Assembly: GCA_035526585.1 (NCBI GenBank)
Contig: DATLCC010000065.1
Location: 11,581-75,580 of the forward strand
Direction: 5' to 3'
Length of the DNA stretch: 64,000 bases
Source: Thermoplasmatota archaeon
GTDB taxonomy: Archaea; Thermoplasmatota; SW-10-69-26; JACQPN01; JAJPHT01
In this document: positions 24,286 to 56,600 of the stretch, in pieces
How the letters are laid out: each line of letters starts with the position of its first letter
Position numbering within the stretch: the stretch's first letter is position 1
The notes under the pieces: model-generated
What the model was told of the DNA's origin: nothing
The model's database searches: none
Seen by the model: the letters and a program-made list of their open reading frames with translations, nothing else
Program-made: the position numbers and the translations under genes

Positions 24286-25047
24286 GTGCGCGCGGCCGCC
24301 CTCCTCCTCGTCGCCACCCTCGCCCTCTCCGGGTGCATCGACGCGGGCGTCCAGCTCATCGAGGATGCGCGTCGCGACGCGGGCGTCGACGAGTCCACAG
24401 AGGCGCCGACGGCGACGCCCCAGGGCCCGCCCACACCACGGAGCCCGACCCCCGGTCCGAGCCCCGGCCCCACCATCCCGAGCCCCACCATCCCGAGCCC
24501 GAGCCCGAGTCCGAGCCCGAGTCCGGGCCCGAGCCCGAGCCCAAGCCCAAGCCCGATCCCGGTGACCCCAAGCCCGAGCCCTAGCCCAAGCCCGACGTCG
24601 CCAACCCCCAGCCCCAGCCCCCCGCCCACCCCGTCGGCGCGCCCCTGGCCCGTGAAGGGCAGCTTCGTCCGCGTGCATGTCGCAGGCCCCGAGAGCGAGG
24701 CTGCCGCGCTCTGGACGTACAGCGGCAAGGACTGGAGCGGACGCTGCGAGCGCGACGGCGAGGATCCCGTGCCGTATACGTCGAAGGATCCTCCGCACTG
24801 GCCGCTCTTCGACACGCGCTCGCCGCCGCCCGAAGGCGAGAGCGTGAAGGTCTGGTACCTCGAGGGATGCTCGATCGTCAACCGGACCGCGACGTACTCG
24901 GGCGGTTTCGCGGCGCAGGCTTCGTCGTTCGAGACGACGTGGGACAGCGCCACCGGGCTCGTCCTATCCTGGGACGCCGATGGAGACCGCGGGCGCCTGG
25001 TGGCGACGGACGCGCCGCTCGCGCCCACGCCCGCGCGCGGGACTTAG
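24286..25047 (+). CDS. lipoprotein with Pro/Ser/Thr-rich linker
   Basis: [15 protein letters not shown] lipobox. [19 protein letters not shown] low-complexity linker. Confidence 0.55.
24420..24640 (+). repeat. coding low-complexity (CCN AGC)n repeat encoding the PSPS linker
   Basis: Read directly. Confidence 0.6.
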
Positions 25048-25877
25048 CGCGCCGGCACGCGGATGCTTTCACGAGCGCTCGCCCAGAGCGACTCGAAGAG
25101 CGACTTCTGCGCCAGGACGAAATCGGTCGCGTTCGTCCACATCGCGACGTCCTCGCGCGCATCGATGCTCGCCGCAGGATCGTTGATGAGCCAGTAGACG
25201 ACCTCGCGGTCGTCCACGATGAGGAAGCGGAACGCGTGATGCGGGTGGAAGTAGCGCACCTCGACGTGGCGATGCGCGGTGAGCGGCGCGAGCGCGCGAT
25301 CGAGCCCCGGGAGGTCGCGCAGCAGGATGCGCATCGGCAGCCCCTCGCTCGCGCGCTTGAGCATGGTCTGGTACGCCTTGTTCTGCGGAGAGACCATGCC
25401 GGGCCCGAAGGTGGTGCTCACCATGCTCTCGCTCGATCGCGCGTTCCGGACGACTCCTTCCACGGCTCCGAGGATCGCGCGGCGCCCCTGGACGATCTTG
25501 TATCCCCAACGCGCGCCGCTGGGCTCTTGCGCCTCGCGCGCCGTGGCCACGGCAGCCGAGACGCGCTCCCGCAGGCTCTCGATCTCGGCGCGGCGCTGCT
25601 CATGGCCTGCGAGGAGCTCGCCGAACACGGCATCCGGGGCGACGGCCTCGTAGACCACGGGGCGCGTGAGGTGCGCCGTGACGAAGCCGCGCCTCATGAG
25701 CGACTCCAGGGCGCGGTAGGTCTCGGTGCGCTTCAGCTTCGTCGCCGCGGCGGCGTCGCTCGCGCGGGTGGGTCCGCGCAGGCAGAGGTGCACGAAGAGC
25801 TTCGCTTCGCGCTCCTCGACGCCGATGCTCGCCAGGCGTTCGACCAGCTCGCCCGCGCTAGGGGATTCCCCGCTCAT
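25044..25877 (-). CDS. TrmB family transcriptional regulator
   Basis: N-terminal w[68 protein letters not shown]. Confidence 0.65.
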
Positions 25878-25989
25878 CCCGGGGGGCAACGCGCTCCTTG
25901 GACAAAGCATGCGCGCTATCCGCGGGAACGACAAAGCGCGGACGTCCGTCCCGCCAGACGGACATGCTGCCAAGCGTAAGCCGCCGAGA

Positions 25990-27768
25990 TTAGAGCGAGT
26001 AATCTTTCCAGCGGCGGCTGACGAGCGCGCGCGTCCCCTCGTCCATGCGGATGATGGGCGGCCACGGGCGGGCGTCCTCGTCGGGCAGCTTCACCGTCGC
26101 GTCCACTCCGATGCGCGGCGGTGCGAGCGTGATGTCGCGCGCGGGGTCGAGGTTCGCCGTCGCGTGGAACGCGCACGCGGAAAGGTCGCGGACGTCCACG
26201 TCGCGATCGAAGACGACGATCGCCGCGCTCTGGGGAAGGCCCGCGGCCCACAGCTTCTCCATCGCCTCCCGCGCCTGGCCCGCGTGGTCCTTGCGGATGC
26301 AAGCGAGCACGAGGCGCTCGTGCGGCCTCGCGAGCGCGAGGACCTCGGGGACCTTCGCCTGGAGCTCGTCGAGGGCGGGCCCCACGCGGGGTGGCGGCGT
26401 GCGTCGCGCGGGCTCGTTCGGGAGGGGCGCCGTGGCGTCGATGCCGACGTGGCTTCCGAGGTCCGGCCGGGGCGCCGCATGGTCGAGCGTGTCCGTCGGC
26501 ATCTGGTCCACGATGAGCACGTCGCGTCCCACGTCCAGGCGCGCGAGGAGCGTGTCCAGGACGCGGCGCGGATCGTGGATGTCGACGTCCTCGTCGAAGA
26601 CGAGGATCGTCTTCTCGAGGGCGATCATGCCCGCGCCCCACAGGCTCATCATGACCTTGCGCGCGTGCCCGGGATATCGTTTCCTGATGGACACGAGCAT
26701 CAGGTTGTGGAAGGCGCCTTCGACGGGCATGTGCATGTCCACGAGCTCCGGGATCTGGAAGCGGATGAGCTCCAGGAACAGGCGCTCGGTCGCCTTTCCC
26801 ATCGGGCCGTCCTCCTGCGGCGGGATCCCGACCACCGTTGTCGGGTAGATCGCCTCCTTGCGGTGCGTGATCGCCGTGACGTGGAACGTGGGAAAGTGGT
26901 CGGCGAGCGAGTAGTAGCCGGTGTGGTCCCCGAAGGGACCCTCGAGCGCCAGCGGCTCCTTCGGGTCGACGTAGCCTTCGAGCACGATGTCGGCGTCCGC
27001 CGGCACCTCCAGGTCGACGGTCTTGCACTTCACCATCCGCACGCGACGCCGGCGGATGAAGCCGCAGAACATGACCTCGTCGAAGCCGGGCGGCAACGGC
27101 GCCGTCGCGCCGTACGTGAGGGCGGGATCGCCCCCGAGCGCGACCGCGACCGGCAGGCGGACGCCCAGGCGCTTCGCCGTGCGGTAGTGCTCGGTGCCGT
27201 GCTTGTGCGTCTGCCAGTGCATGCCGGTCGTCGTGGGGCCGAAGACCTGCATGCGGTACATCCCCATGTTGCGCTCGCCCGTCTCCGGATCGCGCGTGTA
27301 GACCTGGGGAAGCGTGATGAAGCGGCCCGCGTCCAGCGGCCAGCATTTGAGCACGGGGAGCTGGGTGAGATCGACGTCGCCGCCGGTGAGGACCACCTCC
27401 TGGCATTTCGCCTTCCGCACCTTCTTGGGCGGGAAGCTCAGGAGGTCCTTCGCGCGCCGCATTAGGGAGACCATCTCGGCGAAGCTGCGCGGAGGCCTCG
27501 TCTTCACGAGCGCCATGAGATCGCGGCCGATCTCCGCCGGCTCGCGGCCCAGCGCCATCGCCATGCGCTTGTCGGTGCCGAAGGCGTTGATGAGCACCGG
27601 CATCGTGGATCCGCGCACGTTTTCGAAGAGGAGGGCGGGCCCTCCTGCCTTCACGACGCGATCGTAGATCTCCGCGATCTCCAGCTCGGGATCGACCTCG
27701 GCCTTCACGCGCTTGAGCTCGCCCGCCGCCTCGAGCTCGCGGACGAAGGCATGGAGGTCGTACGCCAC
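25990..27768 (-). CDS. UbiD-family prenyl-FMN-dependent decarboxylase
   Basis: UbiD hallmarks: RMQVFGPTTTGMHWQ, GGDPAL, EGPFGDHTGYYS. GTG start near 27768. The upstream Arg/Ser-rich part was rejected. Confidence 0.8.
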   Translation of the reverse strand: MAYDLHAFVRELEAAGELKRVKAEVDPELEIAEIYDRVVKAGGPALLFENVRGSTMPVLINAFGTDKRMAMALGREPAEIGRDLMALVKTRPPRSFAEMVSLMRRAKDLLSFPPKKVRKAKCQEVVLTGGDVDLTQLPVLKCWPLDAGRFITLPQVYTRDPETGERNMGMYRMQVFGPTTTGMHWQTHKHGTEHYRTAKRLGVRLPVAVALGGDPALTYGATAPLPPGFDEVMFCGFIRRRRVRMVKCKTVDLEVPADADIVLEGYVDPKEPLALEGPFGDHTGYYSLADHFPTFHVTAITHRKEAIYPTTVVGIPPQEDGPMGKATERLFLELIRFQIPELVDMHMPVEGAFHNLMLVSIRKRYPGHARKVMMSLWGAGMIALEKTILVFDEDVDIHDPRRVLDTLLARLDVGRDVLIVDQMPTDTLDHAAPRPDLGSHVGIDATAPLPNEPARRTPPPRVGPALDELQAKVPEVLALARPHERLVLACIRKDHAGQAREAMEKLWAAGLPQSAAIVVFDRDVDVRDLSACAFHATANLDPARDITLAPPRIGVDATVKLPDEDARPWPPIIRMDEGTRALVSRRWKDYSL

Positions 27769-36997: not shown

Positions 36998-37546
36998 ATG
37001 GTCAAGGAGCTCAAGATCGGCATCACCGGTCTTCCCTCCGTCGGAAAGACGAGGACCCTTCTCAAGATCGTCGAGAAGCTCGAGGAGAAGGAGCAGATCG
37101 TCGGCGGCATGGTCACCGAAAGCATGGACGAAGGAGCCACGCGCCTCGGCTTCAAGATCGTCAACTGGCTCACCAAGGAGGAAGGCATCCTCGCCCACGT
37201 CGACTTCGCCGACGCCAAGGTCAAGGTCGCCGGCTTCGGCGTCGACATGAACATCCTCGACGGGATCGGCGTCACCGCGATCGAACAGGCCATCAAGGAA
37301 GCCGAAGTCATCGTCATCGACGAGGTCGGCAAGATGGAGATGGAAAGCCCCGCCTTCTGCGCCGCCGTCAAGAAAGCGCTCGACAGCAGCAAACCCATGA
37401 TCATGACGCTGCACAAGAAGAGCCGCAACCCCCTCCTCCAGGACATCCGGCGCCGGGATGACATCCGAATACTGGAAGTCACGAAGATCAACCGCAACCT
37501 CCTCCCCTACAAGATCGAGAAGCTCCTCGAAGGCGAGAACATCTAG
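36998..37546 (+). CDS. nucleoside-triphosphatase, THEP1/Mj1559 family
   Basis: Walker A GITGLPSVGKTR, Walker B VIVIDEVGKME. TATA-like ctatttag about 35 nt upstream. Confidence 0.75.
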   Translation: MVKELKIGITGLPSVGKTRTLLKIVEKLEEKEQIVGGMVTESMDEGATRLGFKIVNWLTKEEGILAHVDFADAKVKVAGFGVDMNILDGIGVTAIEQAIKEAEVIVIDEVGKMEMESPAFCAAVKKALDSSKPMIMTLHKKSRNPLLQDIRRRDDIRILEVTKINRNLLPYKIEKLLEGENI

Positions 37547-37778
37547 CCTGGCCCTTTTTCGAGTCGGACCTCGGGCTCGCGCACCTGCGGTCACGCCATG
37601 CGCTGCGGCGCACGGCTTGGTCCTTGCTTGCTTCGCCTCGCTGCGGGTGCGTCGCCCAAGGTCCTCGCCCGCGCCGCTGCGCGAGCGCTCGCTGCGGCGC
37701 GCGTCGAAAAGGCGCCAGCGGAAACTCCGAGCTATCCACACTTGTCGCTGCGCGTTCGCAAATGGGGAAACCCTTTCT

Positions 37779-37800
37779 GTAACCATTTAGTTACACGTCT
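37779..37800. promoter_or_regulatory. dyad motif GTAACC-N4-aGTTAC-ACGTCT about 200 nt upstream of the RHH array
   Basis: Near-identical motif at 47031-47052 and a related one at 3585-3605. Confidence 0.3.
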
Positions 37801-38003
37801 TCCGCGAAGGCTGAGGTGGCGAGGATCCCCGGCCCTGGGCCGCGACCGGGCCCGGGCCCGGACCCCCCGTGCCCGGGAACCTCCAGCCCGGCTGTCCCCG
37901 CGCCCGGACGCGCCGGCGCCAGGGCCAGCGAGCAGCCGCTTGTCCCGTTGGTTCGAACAACGTACCATACCCTCCCTGGCCACCAAGGGGTTGGGCTCAC
38001 CCC

Positions 38004-38186
38004 ATGCTCATCCACGACCCCCCGAAGAAGACCGGCACGAAGGAACTGAAGGTCCACATCCCGGTGAAGTACCACCTCCAGCTCCACCAGTTGAAGGTCC
38101 TCCAGGGCCGCCAGATCCACGGCGTCATCGAGGAAGCCCTCGACCTCTGGTTCCAGCGCGTGAACGGGGCGGCCAAGGCCGACTGA
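38004..38186 (+). CDS. small ribbon-helix-helix (CopG/Arc-like) protein, paralog 1
   Basis: MLIHDPPKKTGTKELKVHIPVKYHLQLHQLKVLQGRQIHGVIEEALDLWF. Confidence 0.5.
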   Translation: MLIHDPPKKTGTKELKVHIPVKYHLQLHQLKVLQGRQIHGVIEEALDLWFQRVNGAAKAD

Positions 38187-38260
38187 GGCGGCTGCCTGCT
38201 TGTTCGCCCATGGCGAACAACCCCACATACCCTGGAAAACCGGAACTGGAGTCGGACACC

Positions 38261-38473
38261 ATGTTCATCCACGACCCCCCCAAGCCGACGACGCGCAAGG
38301 AGCTGAAGGTGAACCTGCCCGCGAAGCAGCACCGCGACCTGCGCGCCCTCCAGCAGGAGATGGGCGAGGACGCCCCCAAGATCGTCGCCGAGGCGCTGGG
38401 CCTCTACTTCAGCCGGCTCGCCCAAGAGGCGAACCCGCAGCGCCCCGTCTTCGCGAAGCTGGGTCGTCTGTAA
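38261..38473 (+). CDS. small ribbon-helix-helix protein, paralog 2
   Basis: MFIHDPPKPTTRKELKVNLPAKQHRDLRALQQEMGEDAPKIVAEALGLYF. Confidence 0.5.
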   Translation: MFIHDPPKPTTRKELKVNLPAKQHRDLRALQQEMGEDAPKIVAEALGLYFSRLAQEANPQRPVFAKLGRL

Positions 38474-38527
38474 AGGCGAGACGAGCGACGCGATATCCCA
38501 TCACATCCCACCTCGGAAGGAGACCCC

Positions 38528-38749
38528 ATGCTGATCAAGGAACGACCCAAGAAACCGGGAATGAAGGAACTCAAGGTCAACATCCCGGTGAAGTACCACC
38601 TTCAGCTCCACAGCCTGAAGGTCATGGAAGGTCGCCAGATCCACGGGGTCGTCCAGGAAGCGCTGGACAAGTACTTCGCGTCGCTGCGCGCGGCTCAGGA
38701 AGACGCGCGCGACGATGACGGGACCGAAGACAGCGGGATGTCGAAGTAG
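38528..38749 (+). CDS. small ribbon-helix-helix protein, paralog 3
   Basis: MLIKERPKKPGMKELKVNIPVKYHLQLHSLKVMEGRQIHGVVQEALDKYF. Confidence 0.55.
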   Translation: MLIKERPKKPGMKELKVNIPVKYHLQLHSLKVMEGRQIHGVVQEALDKYFASLRAAQEDARDDDGTEDSGMSK

Positions 38750-38898
38750 GTCGCCCGAGCATCGGTGCCGTTTTCCGGGCGCGCTTTTCGGATGCGCGCC
38801 CGCAGGCGCGCACCCCGCGCCCAGGCGCGGGGCGAGGGCCGCAGCGCGCGTCGCGCACGACGCGCCCGGAGCGCCCGAGTCCGAAAAGGGTGCGGCGG

Positions 38899-39057
38899 CA
38901 CCCGGTGAAGTACCACCTTCAGCTCCACAGCCTGAAGGTCATGGAAGGTCGACAGATCCAGGGGGTCGTCCAGGAAGCGCTGGACAAGTACTTCGCGTCG
39001 CTGCGCGCGGATCAGGACGCGGCGAACGAGGATGAAGAGAAGGAAGAGACCGCCTAG
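38899..39057 (+). pseudogene. 5'-truncated copy of RHH paralog 3
   Basis: nt 38899-39008 match nt 38581-38690 with about 2 mismatches. The N-terminal Met and beta-strand region are absent. Its stop overlaps the convergent TrmB-like gene stop (CCTAGG). Confidence 0.45.
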
Positions 39058-40305
39058 GTCGCCTTCGCCGTTTCCCAGCTCTTCTCGAACCCGCGCCACA
39101 TGCCTTCGACCGAAGGCACGAGCGAGACCCACACTCCATACTCGGCGAGCGCGGCGACCTCCTCCGTCGCGGCTTTGCCCGTGAACACGAGCAGCGTCTC
39201 GGCCCGGTCCACGAGCACCATCGGCGCGCCCAGCGCCCCCTCGCCCGCGCGCACCTGCGCGCCCGCGATCTCCGCGCGCACGCCCGGCGGCACGAGGATC
39301 CGCACGCGCACGCCCTCGCGGATGCGCGACGCGAGCGCGCGCCCGATGCCGCTCGCAGCAAGGCGCGCCGCTTCTCCCGCGGAGAGGACGAGCGCGATCT
39401 CGGTCGCCGCGCGAAGCAGCATCTCCTTCTGCTTCTCGTAGCGCGTCAGGCGCCCTTTCACGACGAGCACCTGCTCGGACGCGCGCCCGCTCGTGAGCTC
39501 TTCGAGGCGCGATGCGGCCGGCATGGCGAGCGTCCACTGGTCGTCGAAGAACGCGCGCTGCGCCTGCACGTGGTCGCGGGCGCCGATCCAGAGCGCGGTC
39601 TCCTTCGCGTCCTTCCCCATTGGGTCCGCCGTGACGTACTGGACGATCTCGCGCTCGTCGGCCACGAAGAAGCGCAGCGGGCGCGGCACCATCAGGTGGC
39701 GCACCTCGGCGAACTCCGACATGCGGCGCAGCACGTCCTCCTGGCCCGGCAGCACCTCGGTGAGGATACGCGCCGAGACGCCGCGCTTGTGGGCGGCGCG
39801 CAGCTCCGTCTCCAGCCCCTCGTCGAGGAGGAGCCGGAAGAGCGCGCGGGAGGACGCGACGACGCAGAGCTCCTTCTGCGCGGCGCGGATCGTGCGCGCG
39901 AGCTGGCCGTTGATCTGGTTGCGATCGTGCAGGATGCGGAACGACTCGGAGACCTTCTCCTGCTTCGCCGTGCCGCCTGAAAGTCGGCCCAGCCGCGCGG
40001 CGAGGTCCTCCTTCATCGTCTCCACGGCCTTGAGGCCCGCGGCGCGCTCCTCGACGAGGATGGAGAGCGCCCGCTCCGCCGGCACGGCCGTGAACTGCCG
40101 CGGGCGCGAGAGCGTGCCTTCGACGAGGCCGCGCCCCTGGAGGCGCTCGAGGATCTGGTACGTCTCGGCGCGCTTCAGGAGCGCCGCCTTGGCGAGGTCC
40201 GTGACCTTGCTCGCTCCGAGATGCGTGAGATGCGCGAACGCGCGCGCCTCTTTCTCGCCCAGCCCGCACTGCTGGAGGCGGGTCACGACATCGTCGACCT
40301 TCATG
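39054..40305 (-). CDS. TrmB-family-like transcriptional regulator with long C-terminal sensor region, co-transcribed with a response regulator
   Basis: N-terminal wHTH LTHLGASKVTDLAKAALLKRAETYQILERLQGRGLV. ATG overlaps the stop of the upstream receiver gene (ATGA). Confidence 0.6.
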
Positions 40306-40690
40306 CGCCGTCCTCCTTGGAGAGAAGCCACTCTTTGACCTCGTACACCAGCCGCTTCCCGAACTCGTTGTTCTTCACGACGTAGGCGGCGGCGCCCAGC
40401 TGCAGCGCCTGGATGGCGACCTCCTCGCTGCCTTGCGAGGTCATGAGGATCACGGCCGGCTCCTTGCCTTTCGCGCGCAGCGTCCGCAGCACGTCGAGCC
40501 CGCTCATGTCGGGGAGCCTGTAGTCGAGAAGGACGAGGTCGTAGCGCTCCTCGTTCGCGCGCTCCAAGGCCTCGTCGCCCAGGCGCGCGGTGTCGACGCG
40601 CCACGACGCCTCGACCCGCAGCGCGCGCGTCGCGAGCTGCACGTGGTCGAGATTGTCGTCGACCAAGAGGATGCGCAGAGCCCCGACCAT
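40301..40690 (-). CDS. response regulator receiver domain protein (CheY-like, stand-alone)
   Basis: LRILLVDDN ... YDLVLLDYRLPDMSGLDVL ... AVILMTSQG. No histidine kinase within the window. Confidence 0.75.
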   Translation of the reverse strand: MVGALRILLVDDNLDHVQLATRALRVEASWRVDTARLGDEALERANEERYDLVLLDYRLPDMSGLDVLRTLRAKGKEPAVILMTSQGSEEVAIQALQLGAAAYVVKNNEFGKRLVYEVKEWLLSKEDGA

Positions 40691-47030: not shown

Positions 47031-47052
47031 GTAACCTCTTGGTTACACGTCT
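47031..47052. promoter_or_regulatory. dyad motif GTAACC-N4-GGTTAC-ACGTCT, followed by the ATGGCGCCAT palindrome
   Basis: Read directly. About 190 nt upstream of BNR paralog 2. Confidence 0.3.
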
Positions 47053-47173
47053 GCCACATGGCGCCATATGGCACACCCGTCGCGGTCCCGGTTCCCGGCT
47101 TCCGGCTTCCGGGTCCCGGGTCCTCGGTCCCCGGGTCCCGGTCCCCGGTCCCCTCTTTCCCGCGTTCCCACGT

Positions 47174-47212
47174 CCGTCACCCCCGTCCGGGGTGACACGA
47201 AGCATTTTAGTC
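47174..47212. promoter_or_regulatory. CCGTCACC-N8-GGTGACACG dyad plus TATA-like CATTTTAG about 25 nt upstream of the ATG
   Basis: Read directly. A related GTCACC/GGTGACACG pair lies upstream of paralog 3 (50560-50638). Confidence 0.35.
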
Positions 47213-47223
47213 GTCTAGACAAC

Positions 47224-50200
47224 ATGCCTCGGCTCAAGGTACTGGGGAGGCTCACCCACGTGTCCAACCGCGCTGCTTCGTTCATCGTCCTCGCTCTCCT
47301 AGTGCCGCTTGCGGCTCCCTTCGTGCCCGGCGCGGGCGCGCTCCCTTCGACAGCGCCGCGGTACTCGACGTACGTGGGTCCGGACGAGAACCAGGTCTTC
47401 ACGGTCTTCATCGACTCGGGCGGCGAGCCGTCGATCGGCGTGGACTGGAGGACGGGGGAGATCCTCTACCAGCGCGGGTTCCACACGTTCCGCGCGGAGC
47501 TCCAGGACGACGGCGGCTCGGACTGGATCGACGTCTCGGCGCCCAACACACCGTTCAACATCGACCCGATGCTCTTCACCGACAGCGCTACGGGCCGTAC
47601 GTTCGCGGGTGGGCTGGATGGCATGTGCAGCTCGATGGCCATCACGGACGATGGCGGCCGCACGTGGATCCCCGCGGGGAACATGTGCGTCCCGACGCTC
47701 GACCACCAGACGATCGCGTCGGGCCCGTGGGCGGCGACGACGCTCCCCTCGTCGCCCGCGTTCGATCGCGCGACCTACTACTGCGCGCAGGCGTCCGCCG
47801 TCACGTGCATCACGAGCCAGGACGGCGGCCTCACGTGGGGCCCGCCCGTTCCCGTGACGTGCGGTTTCGTCGATCCCGGCTTCCACGGGAGCGTGCACGT
47901 GGGCCCGGATGGCAAGGTCTTCCTTCCATTCAAGAACTGCCAGGGCGGCGCGGGCGTCGCGGTGAGCGCCGACAACGGCCTCACGTGGACGTCCCACAAG
48001 GTCCCGAGCGCGGTGTACCCGGGTGCTGGGTTCGACCCCGATGTCGCCACGACCCCGAGCGGCTGGCTCTATCTCGGCTACGCGAACGGCGCGACGGGCG
48101 CGGCCACGGCCACGATGTCCAAGGACAACGGCACGACCTGGTCCACGCCCGTGGACGTCGGCGCGCCGCTGGGCGTCGTCGCGAGCACGTTCCACGAGAT
48201 GGTCGCCGGCGACGACGGGCGTGCCGCGCTCGCGTTCCTTGGCACGACCACCGCGGGCAACGGGTACGACCCGGCCTTCGCGGGCGTGTGGGACCTCTAC
48301 GTCGCGACCACCTACGACGCGGGCGCGACCTGGACGACGGTCAAGGCCAGCACGGACCCGGTGCAGCGCGGCTGGATCTGCGCGGGCGGCACGGGCTGCG
48401 CGACGGACGAGTCCGGCCACCGCAACATGCTCGACTTCATGGACGCGCAGGTGGACGCGCAGGGCCGCGTGCTCGTGGGGTATGCCGACGGCTGCACCGG
48501 CGAATGTGCGGGTCCCGCAGGCACGAGCGCGCAGTCCTTCCACAGCCAGGCCACGATCACGCGTCAGTCGAGCGGGCTCACGCTCTTCTCGGCGTTCGAC
48601 CCGTCGACGGGCGCGCTCTTTGCGACCGGCGGCGGACCGTACACGACGCAGGCCGGGAGCGCCGTCGCGCTCGATGGCGAGGCGGCCAACGGCGTCGCGC
48701 CCTACAGCTACTCGTGGAGCGTGCTGAGCCGGCCCGCGGGCTCGGCGGCCGGCGCCTCGTCGATCGCCGCCGCCGCGACCGCGGGCGCGAGCTTCACGCC
48801 CGACGTCGTCGGCGACTATCTGCTGCGCTTCGAAGCGCGCGACGCCTCGGGCGAGCGCGCCGTCGACGTCGTGAAGGTCACCGCCGCGAGCCTGCCGGGC
48901 GTCCCCGTCGCGACGTGCGGCGTCCCGCTCGCGAGCGACGCGGTGGGCGACTCGACCGCCGCGGGCGCGGGCTCCTCGCGTCGTGATATCACGAGCGTCT
49001 CCGCGAGCGACGCGCAGGGCATTTGGACGCTCTGCGTGAGCGTGGCGAGCATGGCGGAGGCGGCGACGGCGGGCTCCAAGTTCACGTTCTTCTGGGACGC
49101 GCCCTACGAGCTTCCTCTCATCACGTACTCCGCATCGGCCACAGTCACGGCGGGCGGCACCGTCGGCAGCGCCCAGTTCTCCAAGGGCGTCGCGGGCGTG
49201 ACCCTCGCGCAGCTGGGCGGCCCGGCCTCCGCGTCGCTCGATGGCGACACGCTGCGCATCACGCTCCCGCGCCCCGGCGTCGGCGGCCCGCAGGATGGCG
49301 AGAGCGCGACGAACCTCTTCGTGCGCGTGGAGAACACCGCGACGCCTACGACGACGTGGGACCGTGCGCCCGACGCGGGCGGGCTCGCGTACACGTTCGG
49401 CCACAATGCGCCCGACGCGGTCGCGCCCGCGCAGGTGACGGGCCTCGCCGGCGAGGACGCGCAGACGGGCGGCCTCGTGAACCTCTCGTGGGACGCCTCC
49501 AGCGACGACATCGGCGTGAAGGACTACGTCGTCCGCCGCTCGACGCTTGCGGGCGGCCCGTACCGGACGGTCGCGCTCGTCGAGGGCCTCGCGTTCCAGG
49601 ACGCCGGCCTCGTCGACGGGACCGCGTACTACTACGCCATCGGCGCGCGTGATGGCGCGGGCAACATCGGCCCGCTCTCGGCCGAGGTCGCCGTCACGCC
49701 CACCGGGCCCGGTGGTCCCGCGGGCGACACGAGCGCGCCCACGTCGCCCGGCTCGCTCGCGACGAGCGCGCTCGCGTCCACCTCGCTCACGCTCACCTGG
49801 CTCGCGGCCGACGATCCCGAGACGGGGATCGACCACTACGAGGTGTACAAGGACGGCGTACGCATCGCGCAGACGACGCTCCTCACGCAGTCCGTGGGAG
49901 GCCTCGCGCCCTCCACGAGCTACGACCTCGAGGTGCGCGCGGTGAACGGCGCCGGCCTCGTCGGCGCGGGCGCGACGTTGACCGTGACGACACCCGCGCG
50001 CCCGCCCGACTGCGGGCAGGCCGCGTCGCCGTTCACGCTCGCGACCGACGCGGGCGGCGACAGCGCGCGCGGCGACGGGCGCGCGGAGATCGTGCGCGTG
50101 GGCGTGAAGGAGACGTCCACGCGCATCGGGTTCTACGTGAGCCTCGCCGACGCGAGCACCCCCGCCCCGAACACGATGTTCCGCGTGTCCTGGCGCACCG

Positions 50201-50505
50201 ACGACCTGCACGGCTTCGCCCTCTACGTCCGGCTCACGGACGCGGGAGCGGCGCCGGCGGGCGTGTGGGTCGTGACGCCGGCGAACGAGGTGAACACGCT
50301 CCGGCAGCCCCAGTTCGGCCTCCAGTGCGACACGGTGTTCATCAGCGTCCAGAAGCAGGACCTGCTGAACCCCGCGCCTGGCGAGCTCCTCCGGGATCTG
50401 CGCGTGACGGCGTCCGTGGACACGACGAACCCGCCCGAGTCCCAGATCTATGATGCCGCTCCTGATACCGGGGGCGTCGATTACGTGATGGGGAGCGCGG
50501 CCTGA
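47224..50505 (+). CDS. secreted BNR/sialidase-like propeller protein with PKD-like region and two fibronectin type III domains (paralog 2, 1093 aa)
   Basis: Signal peptide. Asp-boxes TDDGGRTW, SQDGGLTW, SADNGLTW, SKDNGTTW. N-terminal 470 aa collinear with paralog 3. Confidence 0.7.
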   Translation: MPRLKVLGRLTHVSNRAASFIVLALLVPLAAPFVPGAGALPSTAPRYSTYVGPDENQVFTVFIDSGGEPSIGVDWRTGEILYQRGFHTFRAELQDDGGSDWIDVSAPNTPFNIDPMLFTDSATGRTFAGGLDGMCSSMAITDDGGRTWIPAGNMCVPTLDHQTIASGPWAATTLPSSPAFDRATYYCAQASAVTCITSQDGGLTWGPPVPVTCGFVDPGFHGSVHVGPDGKVFLPFKNCQGGAGVAVSADNGLTWTSHKVPSAVYPGAGFDPDVATTPSGWLYLGYANGATGAATATMSKDNGTTWSTPVDVGAPLGVVASTFHEMVAGDDGRAALAFLGTTTAGNGYDPAFAGVWDLYVATTYDAGATWTTVKASTDPVQRGWICAGGTGCATDESGHRNMLDFMDAQVDAQGRVLVGYADGCTGECAGPAGTSAQSFHSQATITRQSSGLTLFSAFDPSTGALFATGGGPYTTQAGSAVALDGEAANGVAPYSYSWSVLSRPAGSAAGASSIAAAATAGASFTPDVVGDYLLRFEARDASGERAVDVVKVTAASLPGVPVATCGVPLASDAVGDSTAAGAGSSRRDITSVSASDAQGIWTLCVSVASMAEAATAGSKFTFFWDAPYELPLITYSASATVTAGGTVGSAQFSKGVAGVTLAQLGGPASASLDGDTLRITLPRPGVGGPQDGESATNLFVRVENTATPTTTWDRAPDAGGLAYTFGHNAPDAVAPAQVTGLAGEDAQTGGLVNLSWDASSDDIGVKDYVVRRSTLAGGPYRTVALVEGLAFQDAGLVDGTAYYYAIGARDGAGNIGPLSAEVAVTPTGPGGPAGDTSAPTSPGSLATSALASTSLTLTWLAADDPETGIDHYEVYKDGVRIAQTTLLTQSVGGLAPSTSYDLEVRAVNGAGLVGAGATLTVTTPARPPDCGQAASPFTLATDAGGDSARGDGRAEIVRVGVKETSTRIGFYVSLADASTPAPNTMFRVSWRTDDLHGFALYVRLTDAGAAPAGVWVVTPANEVNTLRQPQFGLQCDTVFISVQKQDLLNPAPGELLRDLRVTASVDTTNPPESQIYDAAPDTGGVDYVMGSAA

Positions 50506-50694
50506 GGCGCCTGCCGCATCCAAGCCAAGCGCATACGGGCTCGCGGGAACTCTTATCCTCCGTCACCTGTTCGGCCGAGCCTGAGGCATCGGAGGCAGAG
50601 AGAGCCCTCCCCGTGTCCCTCCCCCCAGGTGACACGGACCGTTCAAGGCCGCTCGACGCGCCCCCGGTGCTGGAGCTTCAGGAGGCCCCACCCA

Positions 50695-53600
50695 GTGTCC
50701 GCTCGCCGTTTCGCATCCGTCGTCACGCTCGCGATGATCCTTCCCCTCGCGCTGCCCCTCGTCCCGACCGCGCTCGCCGTGACGGCGAGCCCGCCCGGAC
50801 CCACGCTTCCGGGCTTCGCGGTCTTCGCGGCCCCCTCGGGAGCCTTCCACGGCGGTGAGCCCACCGTCGGGATCAACTGGCAGACGGACGCCATGATGTA
50901 CCACTCGGCGACGACGACCTACAAGGTCGTCGCGAACCTCGCTGCGAGCCCGCCCACCGCTTCGTGGACGGACGTCAGCCCCCCGAACTCGATCGAGAAC
51001 ATCGACCCGATGCTCTTCACGGACGTCGGCACCGGCCGCACCTTCGCGGGCGGCCTGGACGGCGAGTGCAGCATCATGTCGTTCACGGAGAACGACGGCG
51101 CGGACTGGACGCCCGTGGGCAACATGTGCGCCGGCGCCATCGACCACCAGTCGATCGGCCAGGGCGCCTGGAAGGAGCCGCGCCCGATCGGCGCCACCTA
51201 CGACCGCGCCACCTACTACTGCGCCCAGGGCTGGGTCTCGTTCCCCCAGAACGCGTGCGCGACCTCGCTCGATGGCGGCCTCACCTTCCTCCCCCCCGTC
51301 ATGTGGGATGGCAACTGCTTCGGCCTCCACGGCCACGTGAACGTCTCCACCGTGACGGGCACGGCGTTCGTCCCGACGCGCACGTGCGGCGGCAAGGCCG
51401 GCATGGGCTGGAGCGACGACAACGGCGCCACCTGGCACGACAAGCAGATCGCGCCCACGAACTCCCCCTCGAACGGCTTCGATCCCTCCATCGGCGTCGC
51501 GAGCGGCGGCCGCGTCTGGTTCGCGTACGAGAGCTCCTCCTGGCTCCCCTACGTGGCCTACTCGGACGACGACGGCGCGAACTTCAACATCCTGGGCACG
51601 AACATCGGCGCGGACAAGGGCATCCAGACGGCGACCTTCATGCGCGCGATCGCCGGCGACAACGACCGCATCGCCGTCGCGTACCTCGGCTCCACGACCG
51701 ACGGGAACCCCTTCGTCGCCAACTGGCCCGGCGTCTGGGACCTCTACGTCTCCTTCTCGTACGACAGCGGCGCGACGTGGGAGACCGTGAAGGTCACGAG
51801 CGACCCCGTCCAGCGCGGCTGGATGTGCAGCGCCGGCCTCAGCTGCAACTCGGGCCGCAATCTCCTCGACTTCATGGGCAGCACCCTCGACGCGACCGGG
51901 CACGTCATCGTCGGCTTCCCCGACGGCTGCATCGGCGCGTGCGCGAGCGCCTTCGGCACCGCGTCGCAGTCCACGAACAACTGGCCCACCATCGCGCGCC
52001 AGGTCACCGGCAAGGGCCTCTTCGCGGCGTACGACCCGGTGAGCATCTCGCTTGCGCCCCTCACGGGCACCGCCGGCTCGCCCGCGACCCTCGCGGGCAC
52101 GGCGACGCTCTCGCAGCCCTACTCGCTCGTCATCAACTGGGGCGACGGCAGCACGCAGACCGTCTCCTCCCTCACCGACGCTGCGCTAAGCGTCGCGCAC
52201 ACCTACCTTGCGGCCGGCACGTACACCGTGACGGTCGACGGCACCGGCGCCTCGGGCGACGAGGCCTCCGGCAGCACGAGCGCGACCATCTCCGGCGGCC
52301 AGGGCCCCGGCAGCTCGGTCCTCATCGACGAGCCCGCCGCGCACGAGACCGTCGGCGCCGCCGTCCACGTCGTGGGCCGCGTCGTCGGCGACGGCAGCAA
52401 CCTGCCCCCGACCGCCGCGTTCAGCTTCGTCGTCAGCGGATCGAGCGTCGCCTTCGACGGCACGGGCTCCAGCGACCCCGAGAGCGGCGCGCTCGCGTAC
52501 GCCTGGGCCTTCGGCGACGCCGCGACCGGCGCCGGCGCGACCGCGAGCCACGCGTACGCGACGCCGGGCACGTACGACGTCTGCCTGACCGTCGCCGACG
52601 TCGGCGGCCTCACGGACGACGCGTGCGCCTCCGTCACGATCCAGGGCCAGGCGAGCGTGGACACGATCGCCGAGGACGCCGAGGGCGACGAGGCCGCGAA
52701 CAGCCTCAGCGGCTCCAACGTCCCCGCGATGGACATCCTCAAGCTCGAGATCACGAAGAACGCGGCGCAGGAGCCCGTCTTCATCCTGACCCTGAAGGAC
52801 CTGCAGACCGACCCGCCCGTCACGGAGGCCGCGAACGGCATCTACTGGGCGGTCGACTGGAGGTCCCCCGACAACGCGCACTCCTACGTGCAGTACAGCG
52901 TGACGACGACGGGCGCGGAGCCCACCGTCACGTGCGTCTACGGCATCATCACCGTCACGCAGGGGCAGAACATCCAGGAGAACGAAGGGACCACGACCTG
53001 CAGCACGACGCTTGGCCCGAACGGCAAGCTGTACCTCACGTACCCGTCCGCGGGCCTCGAGGCGCACGGATTCGAGGCCGACAGCACGCTCGGGAACGTC
53101 GTCGGCGCGGCCGGCACGGTCCTCGAGGTCCCGGAGGCCGCCTCCGGCTTCTTCGCGTACGACACGACGAGCGCCGCGGACCACCAGCTCCACGCGGGCG
53201 TCGCCCCCTGGCAGCTCATCGGCTCGCAGCCCGCGCACGTCGCGAAGGCCGCGCCCGCCACGCCGCCCGCGAACCCGCAGATCGTCGACAAGGTCAGCGA
53301 CCCCGTCGGCGACAACTCGCCCGTGGGCAACATCCAGAGCGCCTGGTTCGACGCGGACCCTGACAACCTCTACGTCGGCATGAAAGTGGCCGACATCCCC
53401 GCCGACTCCACCGCGACGGCCTTCACGTACTACTCGGTGAACTTCCAGCCCGCCTACGAGGTCGACGACCCCCAGTGGGGCGCGACCGGCACCGTCACGG
53501 GCCTGCGCGTCACCGCGCTCTACAGCCCCGTCGCCTTCGACAGCCTCCCCAGCGTCCCCCACACCGAGGACGCGACGAGCTTCGAGCTGCAGGTCCTCTC

Positions 53601-56600
53601 GATCAACCCGACGACGGGTGCCAGCAACTTCGGCACGCTTGGCGTCGTCACCGGCACGGTGGACCCGAACAGCGATATCATCTGGTGGGTCGTGCCCCGC
53701 ACGCTGCTCCAGAGCCCGCCCGGCGGCGCGCTCCTGGACACGACGAGCGCGGCCTCCGCGCCCGCGATCGCTGGCGCCGTCACCTTCGGCGGCGCGCTCG
53801 CCGACACGACCGGCACGGGCGACGCCTACTCCTTCCCGAGCGTCGTCGTGACGCCGCCCACCGTGACGCTCTCCGCGACGCCCGCCGCGGGCGCCGCGCC
53901 GCTCAGCGTCACGTTCGCGCCCACCGTCACGCCCGCCTCCATGGCGACGTGGAACCTCGACTTCGGCGACGGCACGCCCGACGCGACCGGCACGACGAGC
54001 TTCCCCGTCCTCTCGCACGTCTACGAGGGCGAGGGCAGCTATCACGCCGTCCTCACCGTGACCGCGCCCAACGGCGGCGTCGGCACCGGCGCGACGGACG
54101 TCACCGTCGGCAGCACGGAGCTCCCGCCCGTGCGCGTCACCGTCGCCGCCGGGAACCTTCCCGCCGTCGACGCCATCTGCGTCGCGAGCTGCAGCGACTG
54201 GAGCGCCGACCTCGACCTTGGCTCCCTCCCCGACGGCGAGGTCACCCTCACCGCGACGCTCCTCGTGAACGGCAACGTCGTCGACACGGACGCGACCGTG
54301 GTCGAGCTCGCGACCGCGACGAGCGCGATCACCATCGACGCGCCCGCCTCCGGCGCCACGATCGACGTCGGCACGACGCTCGACGTCGCGGGCCGCATCG
54401 TCGGCTCGACGAACCTCCCGCCGCAGGCGAGCCTCGCGGGCGACGTCGGCAGCGGCCTCGCGCCCCTCGACGTGACCTTCACGCTGGGCGGCGACGACGA
54501 CAGCGGCATCGCGGGCTGGCGCTTCAGCTCCGGCGACGGCCGCATCGTCGATGGCACCGCGATCCTGCCCCTCGAGATCCAGCACACGTACCAGACGCCG
54601 GGCACGTATCACCCGAGCTTCCGCGTCACCGACACGAACGGCGTCCAGGCCACGAGCACGGGCCAGGTCGTCGTGCAGGCCGAGAACCGCCTCCCGACGA
54701 CCCCCGCCTCGCCCGTCCCCGCGGACGCCGCGGCGAACGTGCCCGTGGGCGCGACGCTGAGCTGGGTCTCCACCGACCCCGACGCGACGCCGCTCACCGC
54801 CGACGTGTACCTCGACGCGGTCGACGGCACGACGCTCGTCGCGAGCGACCAGACCGGCGCGTACATGCCGGTGGGCCTCCTGCCCTCCACGACGTACTTC
54901 TGGCACGTGGACGTGAGCGACGGGATCGCCACCGTCGCCGGCCCGACCTGGAGCTTCACGACGGCCGCCCCCGTCCTCACGGAGGCGCAGAAGCCCCACG
55001 TCGTCGTCGCGCTCATCGACACCGGCACGAACCCGTACCACACGCAGTTCACGCGCGCCGGCCTCGTCGAGGACCCCTCGACCTACATCACGGGCCTCGC
55101 CTCCTCGCAGCTCAAGGAAGTGGACCTCTGCTTCTACGACGCCGCGACGAAGACGGTCGACCGCACGCGCTGCCCCAGCGGCTTCACGAGCGCCTGGCAG
55201 CAGGACGTCGCGAACGGCCGCTGGGCCGGCTTCGGCGTCTCGCCCCTCTCCGCGATCGGCGCGGGCCAGGGCAAGGTCGCGTGGTTCCCCGGCACGAACA
55301 TGATGGTCGTCTCGTTCGCGCACGACCCGAGCGTCGCCCCCGTGGGCGTCGACACCGGCGTCGGCCTCCCGCTTGACGCGGGAGACGCGCACGGCTCGTG
55401 GACGAGCTCCAACGTGGGTGGCCTCACGACCGGCACGTGCCCCGAGTGCATCGTCGTCATGATCGAGGCCGACTCGGTCGACGCGATCAGCGCCGGCTAC
55501 CGCTGGGCCGCGAACCAGCCGTGGATCGACGTCATCACGAGCAGCACGAGCGTCGGCCTCGTCGGCGCCGGCTGGAACCCCGGGGACTTCTTCGACACGA
55601 ACTCGCAGGCCGCGAAGACGACCGTCACGCGCGGCGGCCTCATGTTCGAGTCCTCGGGCAACGGCGTCGCGAACGCCGGCGTCGCCCCGACCTCGACCTA
55701 CCTCTACGGCAACAGCAACCCGTGGACCATCGCCGTCGGCTGCAGCGCCGACGGCACGGGCCAGCCCTGCGGCTACTCGGACTTCCCGAACCCCATCACG
55801 GCGAGCGGCGACGCGCGCATGAGCGCGAGCCCCGCGAGCATGAGCGGCACGGAGCCCGTCGGCGGCACGAGCTTCTCGAGCCCGAGCGCGGCCGGCGTCA
55901 CGGCGCGCGCGCTCTACGGCATCCGCGCCGCCGTCGGCGACACCGGCGAAGGCGCGAAGGCCACGGCGACGCACAGCCTCGTGCGCATCCCGAGCGGCTA
56001 CACGCTCCCCGCGCGCGGCCCGCTCGCGAACGGCGAGCTCACGCGCCTCGAGCTCGAAGAGGCGCTCTTCAAGACCGCGCGCCGCGGCATCGTCCCCAAG
56101 GTGCCCACGTACCTCACGCCCAACAGCGAGATCCCGCAGAGCCCCGTCTCCTTCGTCAAGGAAGGCTACGGCGACGTCTACCGCGGCGACTGGGGCGTCG
56201 GCCACGCGAGCGCCGAAGCCACGTGGGCGAGCACGGGCGACATCGTGAGCCACATCCTCACGCCGCCCGCGACGGGCGCCGTCTGGCCCAACCGCTTCAT
56301 CGAAGAGACGTGGTGGGAGACGGTCGTCGAGCCCACGCAGATCGCCCTCTTCGGCGGAGACGTCCCCGACACCGACGGCAACGACGGGTTCCCGATGAAC
56401 GCGGCCGGCGCCCAGGGCGGCCTGCAGGGCTACGCGGGCCCCGCGTTCGGCGTGAGCGCGCACGTCCCCGCCATCACGGACGCGAACGCGGACGTGCCGG
56501 TGGGCGTCGTGCCCTCGGCGAGCGCGAACCGCATCTACCTCCACCACGCGAACCTCGGCCCCGACCCCGCCGACCCCGTGAACGACCTGATCGAGTTCTA

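Follow-up and report, generated by a model that had tools for sequence, protein, structure and literature searches.

Conservation of a three-gene array

The stretch of DNA analysed here (the window; 64,000 nucleotides [nt] of contig DATLCC010000065.1 from a Thermoplasmatota archaeon) is archaeal chromosome with a guanine-plus-cytosine (GC) content of ~70%, on which three small paralogous genes, termed A, B and C, are followed by a structured element, E, and a 5'-truncated copy of gene C. Gene A (38004..38186, + strand, as are all features below unless stated otherwise) encodes 60 amino acids (aa) and is identical to VM370_06710, gene B (38261..38473) encodes 70 aa and is a faster-evolving paralog, and gene C (38528..38749) encodes 73 aa and is the intact copy of the gene that is partly repeated downstream. 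Each represents a subtype with its own characteristic sequence: LHQLKVL..EEALDLWF in A, MFIHDPPK..KELKVNLPA.QHR in B, and LHSLKVMEGRQIHGVVQEALDKYF with an acidic tail in C. The 3' part of gene C plus 6 nt beyond its stop codon forms repeat R1 (38584..38755), the stretch that is duplicated downstream; repeat R2 (38899..39057) is the truncated copy, which extends from P-V-K-Y-H to the stop, and the GC-rich, structured element E (38770..38894) lies between the two. The four small open reading frames (ORFs) of the locus are identical to NCBI entries VM370_06710 to VM370_06725 of the metagenome-assembled genome ‘Candidatus Thermoplasmatota archaeon’.

A, B and C share the N-terminus M-[LF]-I-[HK]-[DE]-[PR]-P-K, followed by KELKV[HN][IL]P and then EAL..[YW]F. 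An earlier note on this DNA had described three small paralogous ORFs with a common N-terminus; these are present, with slight corrections to their coordinates. A profile search of a protein collection recovered 98 homologs (47-109 aa), none with a Pfam domain, and the organism names attached to them are those of Thermoplasmatota archaea only, the remainder being metagenome contigs. The homologs divide into three sharp subtypes (A, n = 22; B, n = 18; C, n = 58). Between orthologs, differences at core codons 13-50 are largely synonymous in gene A (162 synonymous, 60 non-synonymous) and gene C (573 and 142), both of which are under strong purifying selection, while the counts for gene B are 166 and 283; B evolves faster, yet retains the N-terminus and the strand. 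With 98 homologs and a large excess of synonymous over non-synonymous differences in A and C, the small ORFs are not chance occurrences.

The order A-B-C is found in the window and in several related loci (designated by L numbers: L001/L013, L006, L019, L022 and L027, and also L017, L132 and L133, the contigs of which begin inside gene A). Two gene copies are present in L002, L003, L007 and L008, and one in L004, L020, L023 and L025. The three genes are separate orthologous groups, and the triad is old and occupies a fixed site in several Thermoplasmatota genomes. That relatives keep the array, in the same order at the same chromosomal site, supports the reading of the earlier note; the suggestion that these are diversifying factors is not supported, as A and C are extremely conserved and the triad is an old orthologous set rather than a recent expansion.

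A profile search of 1.84 billion cluster representatives (clusters at 50% identity) extended the family to at least 500 relatives at an E-value ≤0.001, 70 of them at ≤1e-10, with the consensus KELKVKIPVxxHxxLHxLKxLxGKxISxxVxEALDxYF. Two distant relatives were placed in other archaeal contexts, one adjoining TiaS and the other belonging to a tandem pair. The family is widespread in archaea and is in neither Pfam nor NCBIfam; searches of NCBIfam, PHROGs and PADLOC with the proteins returned nothing usable, no link to viruses was found in PHROGs or among viral contigs, and literature searches found no description of the family. A distant lineage (L129:4001-4637) carries two tandem family members (73 and 71 aa) in an unrelated neighbourhood, and the family may tend generally towards tandem pairs.

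The neighbours of the array are conserved as well. Upstream is a gene for a THEP1-type NTPase (36998..37546; Pfam NTPase_1, 2.3e-48), which likewise adjoins the array in L019, L020, L022, L023 and L027. Downstream, and convergent with the array, is a gene for a TrmB-family regulator (39054..40304, - strand; Pfam TrmB, 4e-12, and Regulator_TrmB, 8e-9), the most constant array neighbour across the related loci. It is followed by a single-domain response regulator gene (40301..40690, - strand; Pfam Response_reg, 7e-26) that overlaps the TrmB start by 4 nt, and then by the genes for archaetidylserine synthase and decarboxylase (CDP-OH_P_transf, PS_Dcarbxylase). The gene order NTPase_1 / array / TrmB / Response_reg / CDP-OH_P_transf / PS_Dcarbxylase is conserved in relatives, the neighbourhood being kept in L020, L022, L023 and L027; in L025 the TrmB and response regulator pair is still adjacent, though the upstream gene differs. 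Within this lineage of high-GC soil Thermoplasmatota the locus keeps the same place on the chromosome, and the array may be functionally tied to the convergent pair of TrmB-like regulator and response regulator. The non-coding gap between the NTPase gene and gene A is GC-rich and unusually long, at 457 nt, in the window (37547-38003), where it holds GGGCCCGG-type palindromes (37837-37865), and 72 nt long in L020. In L019, and only there, a 23S_rRNA_IVP (four-helix-bundle) gene (L019:2799-3221) lies between the NTPase gene and A.

Protein fold and upstream palindromes

A ribbon-helix-helix (RHH) fold of the CopG/Arc type, as proposed in the earlier note, is very probable for the three proteins because a series of individually weak signals agree in direction. 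With a cut-off of 27.2 bits, the Pfam model Antitox_RHH (PF20605) gave gene A and the truncated copy a score of 18.2, and it was matched below threshold by 29 of 79 family members (best member, E-value 1.4e-4). When the wider-family profile was compared with the PDB, the best match was 9kkd, of the RHH/CopG family (E-value 0.018), followed by ORF56, omega and a CopG-family chain. The AlphaFold model (predicted local distance difference test score 79.5) has two helices, at residues 21-34 and 38-59/62, after the conserved extended segment KELKVxIP; a strand-helix-helix topology within a domain of ~45 residues is found in the AlphaFold models, though the strand itself is unformed in the monomer. 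RHH proteins (CdbA, SSV-RH protein, CopG, Arc and ParD) make up nearly all of the top Foldseek matches, at target-normalised template modelling scores of 0.64-0.74 and a root-mean-square deviation of ~2 Å over 41-51 residues; their E-values are 0.4 or worse because the domain is so short. An hhalign comparison with CopG was in the correct register (P 0.0027, probability 11%), and that with Arc was limited to the G-R-S turn. The Gly-x-Ser/Thr/Asn turn between the helices is present: G35 is invariant in the close family (alignment A2) and conserved at ≥90% in the wide alignment (A6); A and C read G-R-Q-I-H at the turn, where the wider family has G-K-x-I-S.

Upstream of the genes is a conserved block comprising the inverted repeat TTGTYYG-N(5-9)-CGAACAA[CG], which ends 39-42 nt before the ATG, and, 3-4 nt further on, a TATA-like C[CA]ATAC or CTATCC (CCATACCC or ACATACCC). 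The putative promoter/operator of gene A (37940..37972) consists of the operator-like inverted repeat TTGTCCCGTTGGTTCGAACAAC, the right half-site of which ends 42 nt before the ATG, and the TATA-like CCATACCC, while that of gene B (38200..38232) is a perfect 9+3+9 palindrome, TTGTTCGCC-CAT-GGCGAACAA, with ACATACCC. In the window the inverted repeat TTGTYYG-N-CGAACAAC occurs at 37940-37961 and 38200-38221, two matches where 0.01 are expected. By sequence inspection, the putative promoter region of gene C (38464..38509, ~40 nt from the ATG) contains a degenerate palindrome, TCGTCTGTAAAGGCGAGACGA, with GATATCCC/ATCACATCCC; this site is weaker than those of A and B, and is present when the intergenic spacer is long enough. 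A relaxed form of the motif matched solely upstream of family genes in the related loci, with one chance match in ~0.7 Mb of unrelated control loci, and the motif is also found upstream of a distant family member (L128) in a different gene context. The ACATACCC-like similarity upstream of each copy, to which the earlier note had drawn attention, is real; it is the minor, downstream edge of this larger inverted-repeat block. From the position of the palindrome and its co-conservation with the family genes we infer that it is an autoregulatory operator, serving auto- or cross-repression.

Autoregulated RHH repressors carry a palindromic site that overlaps their own promoter. RHH proteins act as dimers that insert an antiparallel beta-ribbon into the major groove of DNA, a mode of binding for which the conserved palindrome gives indirect support in the present family. 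The CopG/Arc/MetJ repressors (e.g., CopG of pMV158 and Arc of phage P22) have the same domain size (~45-60 aa), a predicted N-terminal extended segment, two helices and a Gly-containing turn, give the best fold and profile matches to this family, and have a palindromic site overlapping their own promoter region (here, the putative operator). They differ in that no curated model reaches threshold for the present family, which has an extra conserved N-terminal motif, M-x-I-x-[DE]-P-P-K-K, before the strand, and in that the genes described here are archaeal, chromosomal and arranged as an A-B-C triad. The presence of the palindrome also bears on whether the proteins could instead be abundant DNA-binding proteins of a nucleoid or chromatin type, without the sequence specificity of a repressor. 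Their near-invariant sequence across genomes, the acidic tail on C and the occurrence of one to three standalone copies in many archaea would suit such a role, but a specific palindrome co-conserved upstream of the family genes is typical of autoregulated RHH repressors, and we regard nucleoid binding as unlikely.

In archaea, the closest functional analogue, as judged by likeness, is the aCcr1 clade of the Sulfolobales, whose members are standalone RHH proteins of ~58 aa that are highly conserved, have several paralogs per genome in conserved neighbourhoods, and repress through a short promoter motif (PMC9976892). Both groups consist of small standalone archaeal RHH proteins (predicted, in the present family) with multiple paralogs, high conservation and a conserved neighbourhood; aCcr1 belongs to another phylum and its paralogs are dispersed, whereas those described here are in tandem (PMC9976892). 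No sequence relationship between the two was detected, a distinction made from the published description and not from comparison with the aCcr1 sequence.

The best sequence-level similarity of the family, albeit below threshold, is to RHH antitoxins (PF20605, ParD, VapB), and the earlier note had entertained orphan antitoxin-like modules. Type II antitoxins, whether orphaned or paired with an unrecognised toxin, would be compatible with the Antitox_RHH similarity, which is the best in Pfam, and with weak VapB, ParD and PSK_trans_fac hits among relatives. RHH antitoxins are accompanied by a toxin gene, however, and no candidate toxin lies beside any copy in ~20 loci; where a single copy is present, NTPase_1 and TrmB are its only neighbours, and there is no Pfam, NCBIfam or PADLOC match at threshold. 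The fixed position, the extreme conservation and the putative promoter of each gene are likewise unlike mobile toxin-antitoxin pairs. An antitoxin function is therefore highly improbable, and that suggestion of the earlier note is set aside.

Element E and the truncated copy of gene C

Positions 38584-38730 and 38901-39047, which are offset by 317 nt, are identical at 134 of 147 positions (91%). Identity is uneven: the first 110 nt match at 108 positions (98%), while the last ~37 nt, coding for the acidic tail, are just ~70% identical, and TAGGTCGCC is common to both copies after the stop codon. A fourth copy with 98% identity over 110 nt had been reported in the earlier note; it is real, although the register was off by one (27 of 110 positions agree in the register used there), and the description of it as freshly truncated suits the core and not the tail, so the copy is not uniformly fresh. 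The R2 stop codon overlaps that of the TrmB gene (CTAG), which is the native position of gene C, and because R2 still abuts TrmB it represents the native end of that gene. Translation of R2 could begin at a GTG within E (38890); the NCBI annotation is of a 50-aa protein from the GTG at 38905. The encoded remnant (P0085) carries H39Q at a conserved His.

Element E is ~125 nt long and is predicted to fold (alignments A3 and A5, RNAalifold) into a 15-bp closing helix (GCGC.CTTTTCGGATGCG / CGAGTCCGAAAAG.GGTGC) around two or three hairpins; its conserved left arm, CATCGGTGCCGTTTTCCGGG, begins at ~38760. In support of this fold, 96.5% of pair cells are paired (slid controls, ≤56%), four pairs covary, and pairing in the closing helix is complete (100%) in five copies; G-U pairs point to the gene strand.

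Among loci gathered around the protein family we recognised six copies of E, on five contigs from four samples, by the core CCCGAGTCCGAAAAGGG and a covariance model (also labelled R1, and distinct from repeat R1). E follows gene C in the window (99 bits) and in L018 (136 bits), and gene A in L006 (129 bits), L017 (139 bits) and L019 (133 bits); a second copy in L019 follows gene C, where the contig ends inside E. In all five copies for which the downstream sequence is assembled, E lies ~10-25 nt past an intact family gene and immediately precedes a duplicate of that gene that lacks the 5' part and runs into the native downstream sequence of the gene (TrmB in the window and L018, the A-B intergenic region in the others). 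No locus examined has E without a duplicate, or a duplicate without E. The point at which the duplication starts varies, from P-V-K-Y-H in the window and ~ten bases later in L018 to L-N-I-P in L017 and L019 and L-D-L-W-F in L006, and the duplicated length is ~170 nt of C in the window, 52 nt of A in L006 and ~150 nt of A in L017 and L019. A deletion of 2 nt shifts the reading frame of the L019 remnant.

L019 has E after both A and C in one genome (L019:3462-3582 and L019:4214-4280). The first hairpin is missing from both of these copies but not from the E that follows C in L018, a contig of the same sample; copies within a genome thus resemble each other, which suggests copying or conversion between them. 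The gap between the NTPase gene and gene A in the window contains a weak, degenerate E-like stretch (37619..37726, - strand), the left ~60 nt of which align to E; it scored 31 bits against the covariance model with default filters and 15.6 with filters off, and its assignment is uncertain. Weak model hits in L003/L008 and L004/L011 were not E on inspection, that in L004 being a hairpin beside a tRNA 3' end.

Beyond the loci gathered around the family, viral contigs and plasmids were searched for E. The 17-mer CCCGAGTCCGAAAAGGG is absent from viral contigs; a 15-mer matched 100 viral DNA stretches, and as the covariance model recognised E in none of the 80 that were listed, they are chance matches. 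Plasmids gave no match. Rfam had no match to E at an E-value ≤1 (37400-39400), a protein-database search with the six frames of E concatenated found nothing, probably owing to the low complexity of E, and no description of such an element was found in literature searches.

The earlier note attributed the truncated copy to recent duplication or gene conversion. As a full account this falls short, given that the copy is one side of a recurrent arrangement, [intact gene]-[E]-[truncated duplicate], that is found on four other contigs at A or C. A simple tandem duplication or conversion of gene C, with an incidental spacer, would explain the direct-repeat geometry and the 98% identity over the first 110 nt, but the spacer is a conserved, structured element that occurs on those four contigs in the same arrangement with two different genes. 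A duplication that included the spacer would also have left a second spacer after the copy, which instead abuts TrmB directly, and the tail identity is just ~70%; we consider this explanation quite improbable. Nor do we think it probable, though slightly less remote, that the copy is functional, either as a strand-less subunit (starting inside E) that poisons or tunes dimers, or as a silent cassette that exchanges the acidic C-terminal tail by recombination. E and the remnant share an open frame in the window (GTG at 38890), L017 (ATG, P0095), L018 and L006, and in the window the tails differ while the cores are identical. However, DNA of 80% GC leaves nearly every frame open, which gives such a frame little weight, and the remnants are frameshifted in L019, reduced to 17 codons in L006 and altered by H39Q in the window. 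The fourth copy is best read as a non-functional remnant made on the arrival of E, and not as an independent, fresh duplication; the 50-55-aa ‘gene’ VM370_06725 and others like it (P0085, P0095 and P0097) should accordingly be treated in annotation as remnants rather than genes.

Misassembly of short metagenome reads across the repeated core could in principle generate both E and the truncated copy. Contig ends often fall within the core or within E (L017, L019, L132 and L133), and the A/C hybrid gene of L010 (see below) could be a chimera. Against this, the non-homologous junction between E and the gene must exist in the reads, and the arrangement is found on five contigs from four samples, produced by several assemblers, with different junctions and diverged repeat copies; an artefact is very improbable.

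Miniature inverted-repeat transposable elements (MITEs) have target-site duplications of fixed length (2-10 bp), and some integrative elements duplicate the 3' end of their target gene, e.g., those that target tRNA genes. E resembles both in being small, non-coding and non-autonomous, with inverted-repeat termini in the form of its long closing helix, and in being flanked by direct repeats of a target gene that is intact on one side. MITEs are present in many copies per genome; at least two copies of E occur in one genome (L019), with one clear and one weak copy in the 64-kb window. E thus has the terminal inverted repeats of a MITE; it lacks a short, fixed target-site duplication, its flanking repeats being variable and 52 to ~170 nt long. 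Unlike integrative elements, it has only ~125 nt between the repeats and no integrase. We scanned 30 further window ORFs, the array neighbours and two giant ORFs, all of which encode housekeeping or surface proteins; none is an integrase, transposase, recombinase, reverse transcriptase or toxin-like partner. A scan of the window for tRNA and tmRNA genes found none. The coupling of E to a duplication fits none of the transposon or integrative-element patterns compared.

Three other candidates were rejected. In a diversity-generating retroelement the mismatches would be adenine-specific, whereas those in the core are C to A and C to G and those in the tail are of all kinds, and no reverse transcriptase is among the scanned ORFs. 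An integron cassette attC site does not fit, E being multi-branched and lacking a GTTRRRY motif, with no integrase. A bulge-helix-bulge intron was rejected by reasoning, as the ‘exon’ junctions are direct rather than inverted repeats and cannot pair.

A model for the locus

We consider it reasonably probable that the locus consists of three old RHH paralogs, auto- and cross-regulated through the palindromes, with a ‘fourth copy’ that is a remnant coupled to the insertion of E. A, B and C would dimerise through the N-terminal strand and the two helices, and their dimers or tetramers, homo- or heteromeric, would bind the TTGTTCG-N-CGAACAA palindromes. Binding would most likely repress transcription of each gene and of the others, making the array a small auto- and cross-regulated transcription-factor module. 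E would have inserted just past the stop codon of gene C, with a second copy of the 3'-terminal ~170 nt of the gene beyond it. The insertion and the duplication appear to be one coupled event because the same arrangement recurs at A or C with different junctions. Afterwards the repeat may degenerate, or recombination between the two repeats may remove it along with E.

Several points weigh against this reading. Taken singly, each RHH match is below significance (Pfam under its curated cut-off, Foldseek E-values of 0.4 or worse, hhalign 11%), and the AlphaFold prediction is of a monomer, which cannot display an intersubunit beta-ribbon. DNA binding and autoregulation are read solely from the position and conservation of the motif, and the right half of the palindrome could in part be a lineage-specific TFB recognition element (BRE), upstream of the TATA box, rather than an operator. 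Just six copies of E were recognised, all in short-read metagenome assemblies in which contigs often break inside the conserved core. Finally, a single recent duplication fails to explain why, in the window and L017, the core is 98-99% identical and the tail ~70%; this unevenness calls for an event of greater age, or for gene conversion within the core alone. The repeats of L018 and L006 are more uniform than those of the window and L017.

The geometry of the coupled event is a-[X..Y]-E-[X..Y]-b, in which Y is fixed at the stop codon and X is variable. It could be produced by an element that makes long, variable target duplications, by a template switch (replicative or reverse-transcriptase-mediated) that copies E and re-enters the gene upstream, or by homologous recombination that integrates a small circle carrying E and a gene fragment; all three fit. 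More specifically, E might be a non-autonomous mobile element of a kind not yet described, or might result from RNA- or replication-templated insertion; in either case it would land at the stop codons of these RHH genes and place beyond itself a long copy, of variable extent, of the gene upstream. This proposal is speculative and on balance doubtful. Were it correct, and were the copied stretch to extend past the promoter, complete tandem paralogs would result, and the process could be the engine of the A-B-C arrays. A defined mechanism of this kind would give archaeal genomes a new route to gene fragments, and possibly to tandem paralogs. Independently of E, the array exemplifies a family of small archaeal RHH-type regulators (as predicted) that has no curated model, and its candidate operator is directly testable in a lineage without cultured members.

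Several further observations concern the assemblies and the rest of the window. Contigs begin or end inside the gene core or E at L017:1, L132:1, L133:1 and L019:4280; these repeats probably fragment assemblies, leaving the arrays under-represented in binned genomes. The hybrid gene of L010 (L010:2395-2619) is of subtype A in its upstream region and N-terminus, where it is identical to L006, and of subtype C at the end of the core and in the tail, where it is identical to L017. It directly abuts TrmB, B being missing, and is either a real A/C recombination with deletion of B or an assembly chimera across the shared core. L003 (JAJPHT010000020.1) is a 164-kb contig labelled ‘Proteobacteria bacterium’ with a two-copy array, the proteins of which are identical to those of L008 and nearly so to those of L002, a Thermoplasmata contig; mislabelling or contamination of the bin is the probable reason. 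Elsewhere in the window, a second gene for a TrmB-family regulator (25047-26090) adjoins a gene for a UbiD-type decarboxylase, and the two giant ORFs, which are adjacent (47035-61464; 1156 and 3652 aa) and contain fn3, BNR, PKD, He_PIG and Big_9 domains, presumably encode surface proteins.

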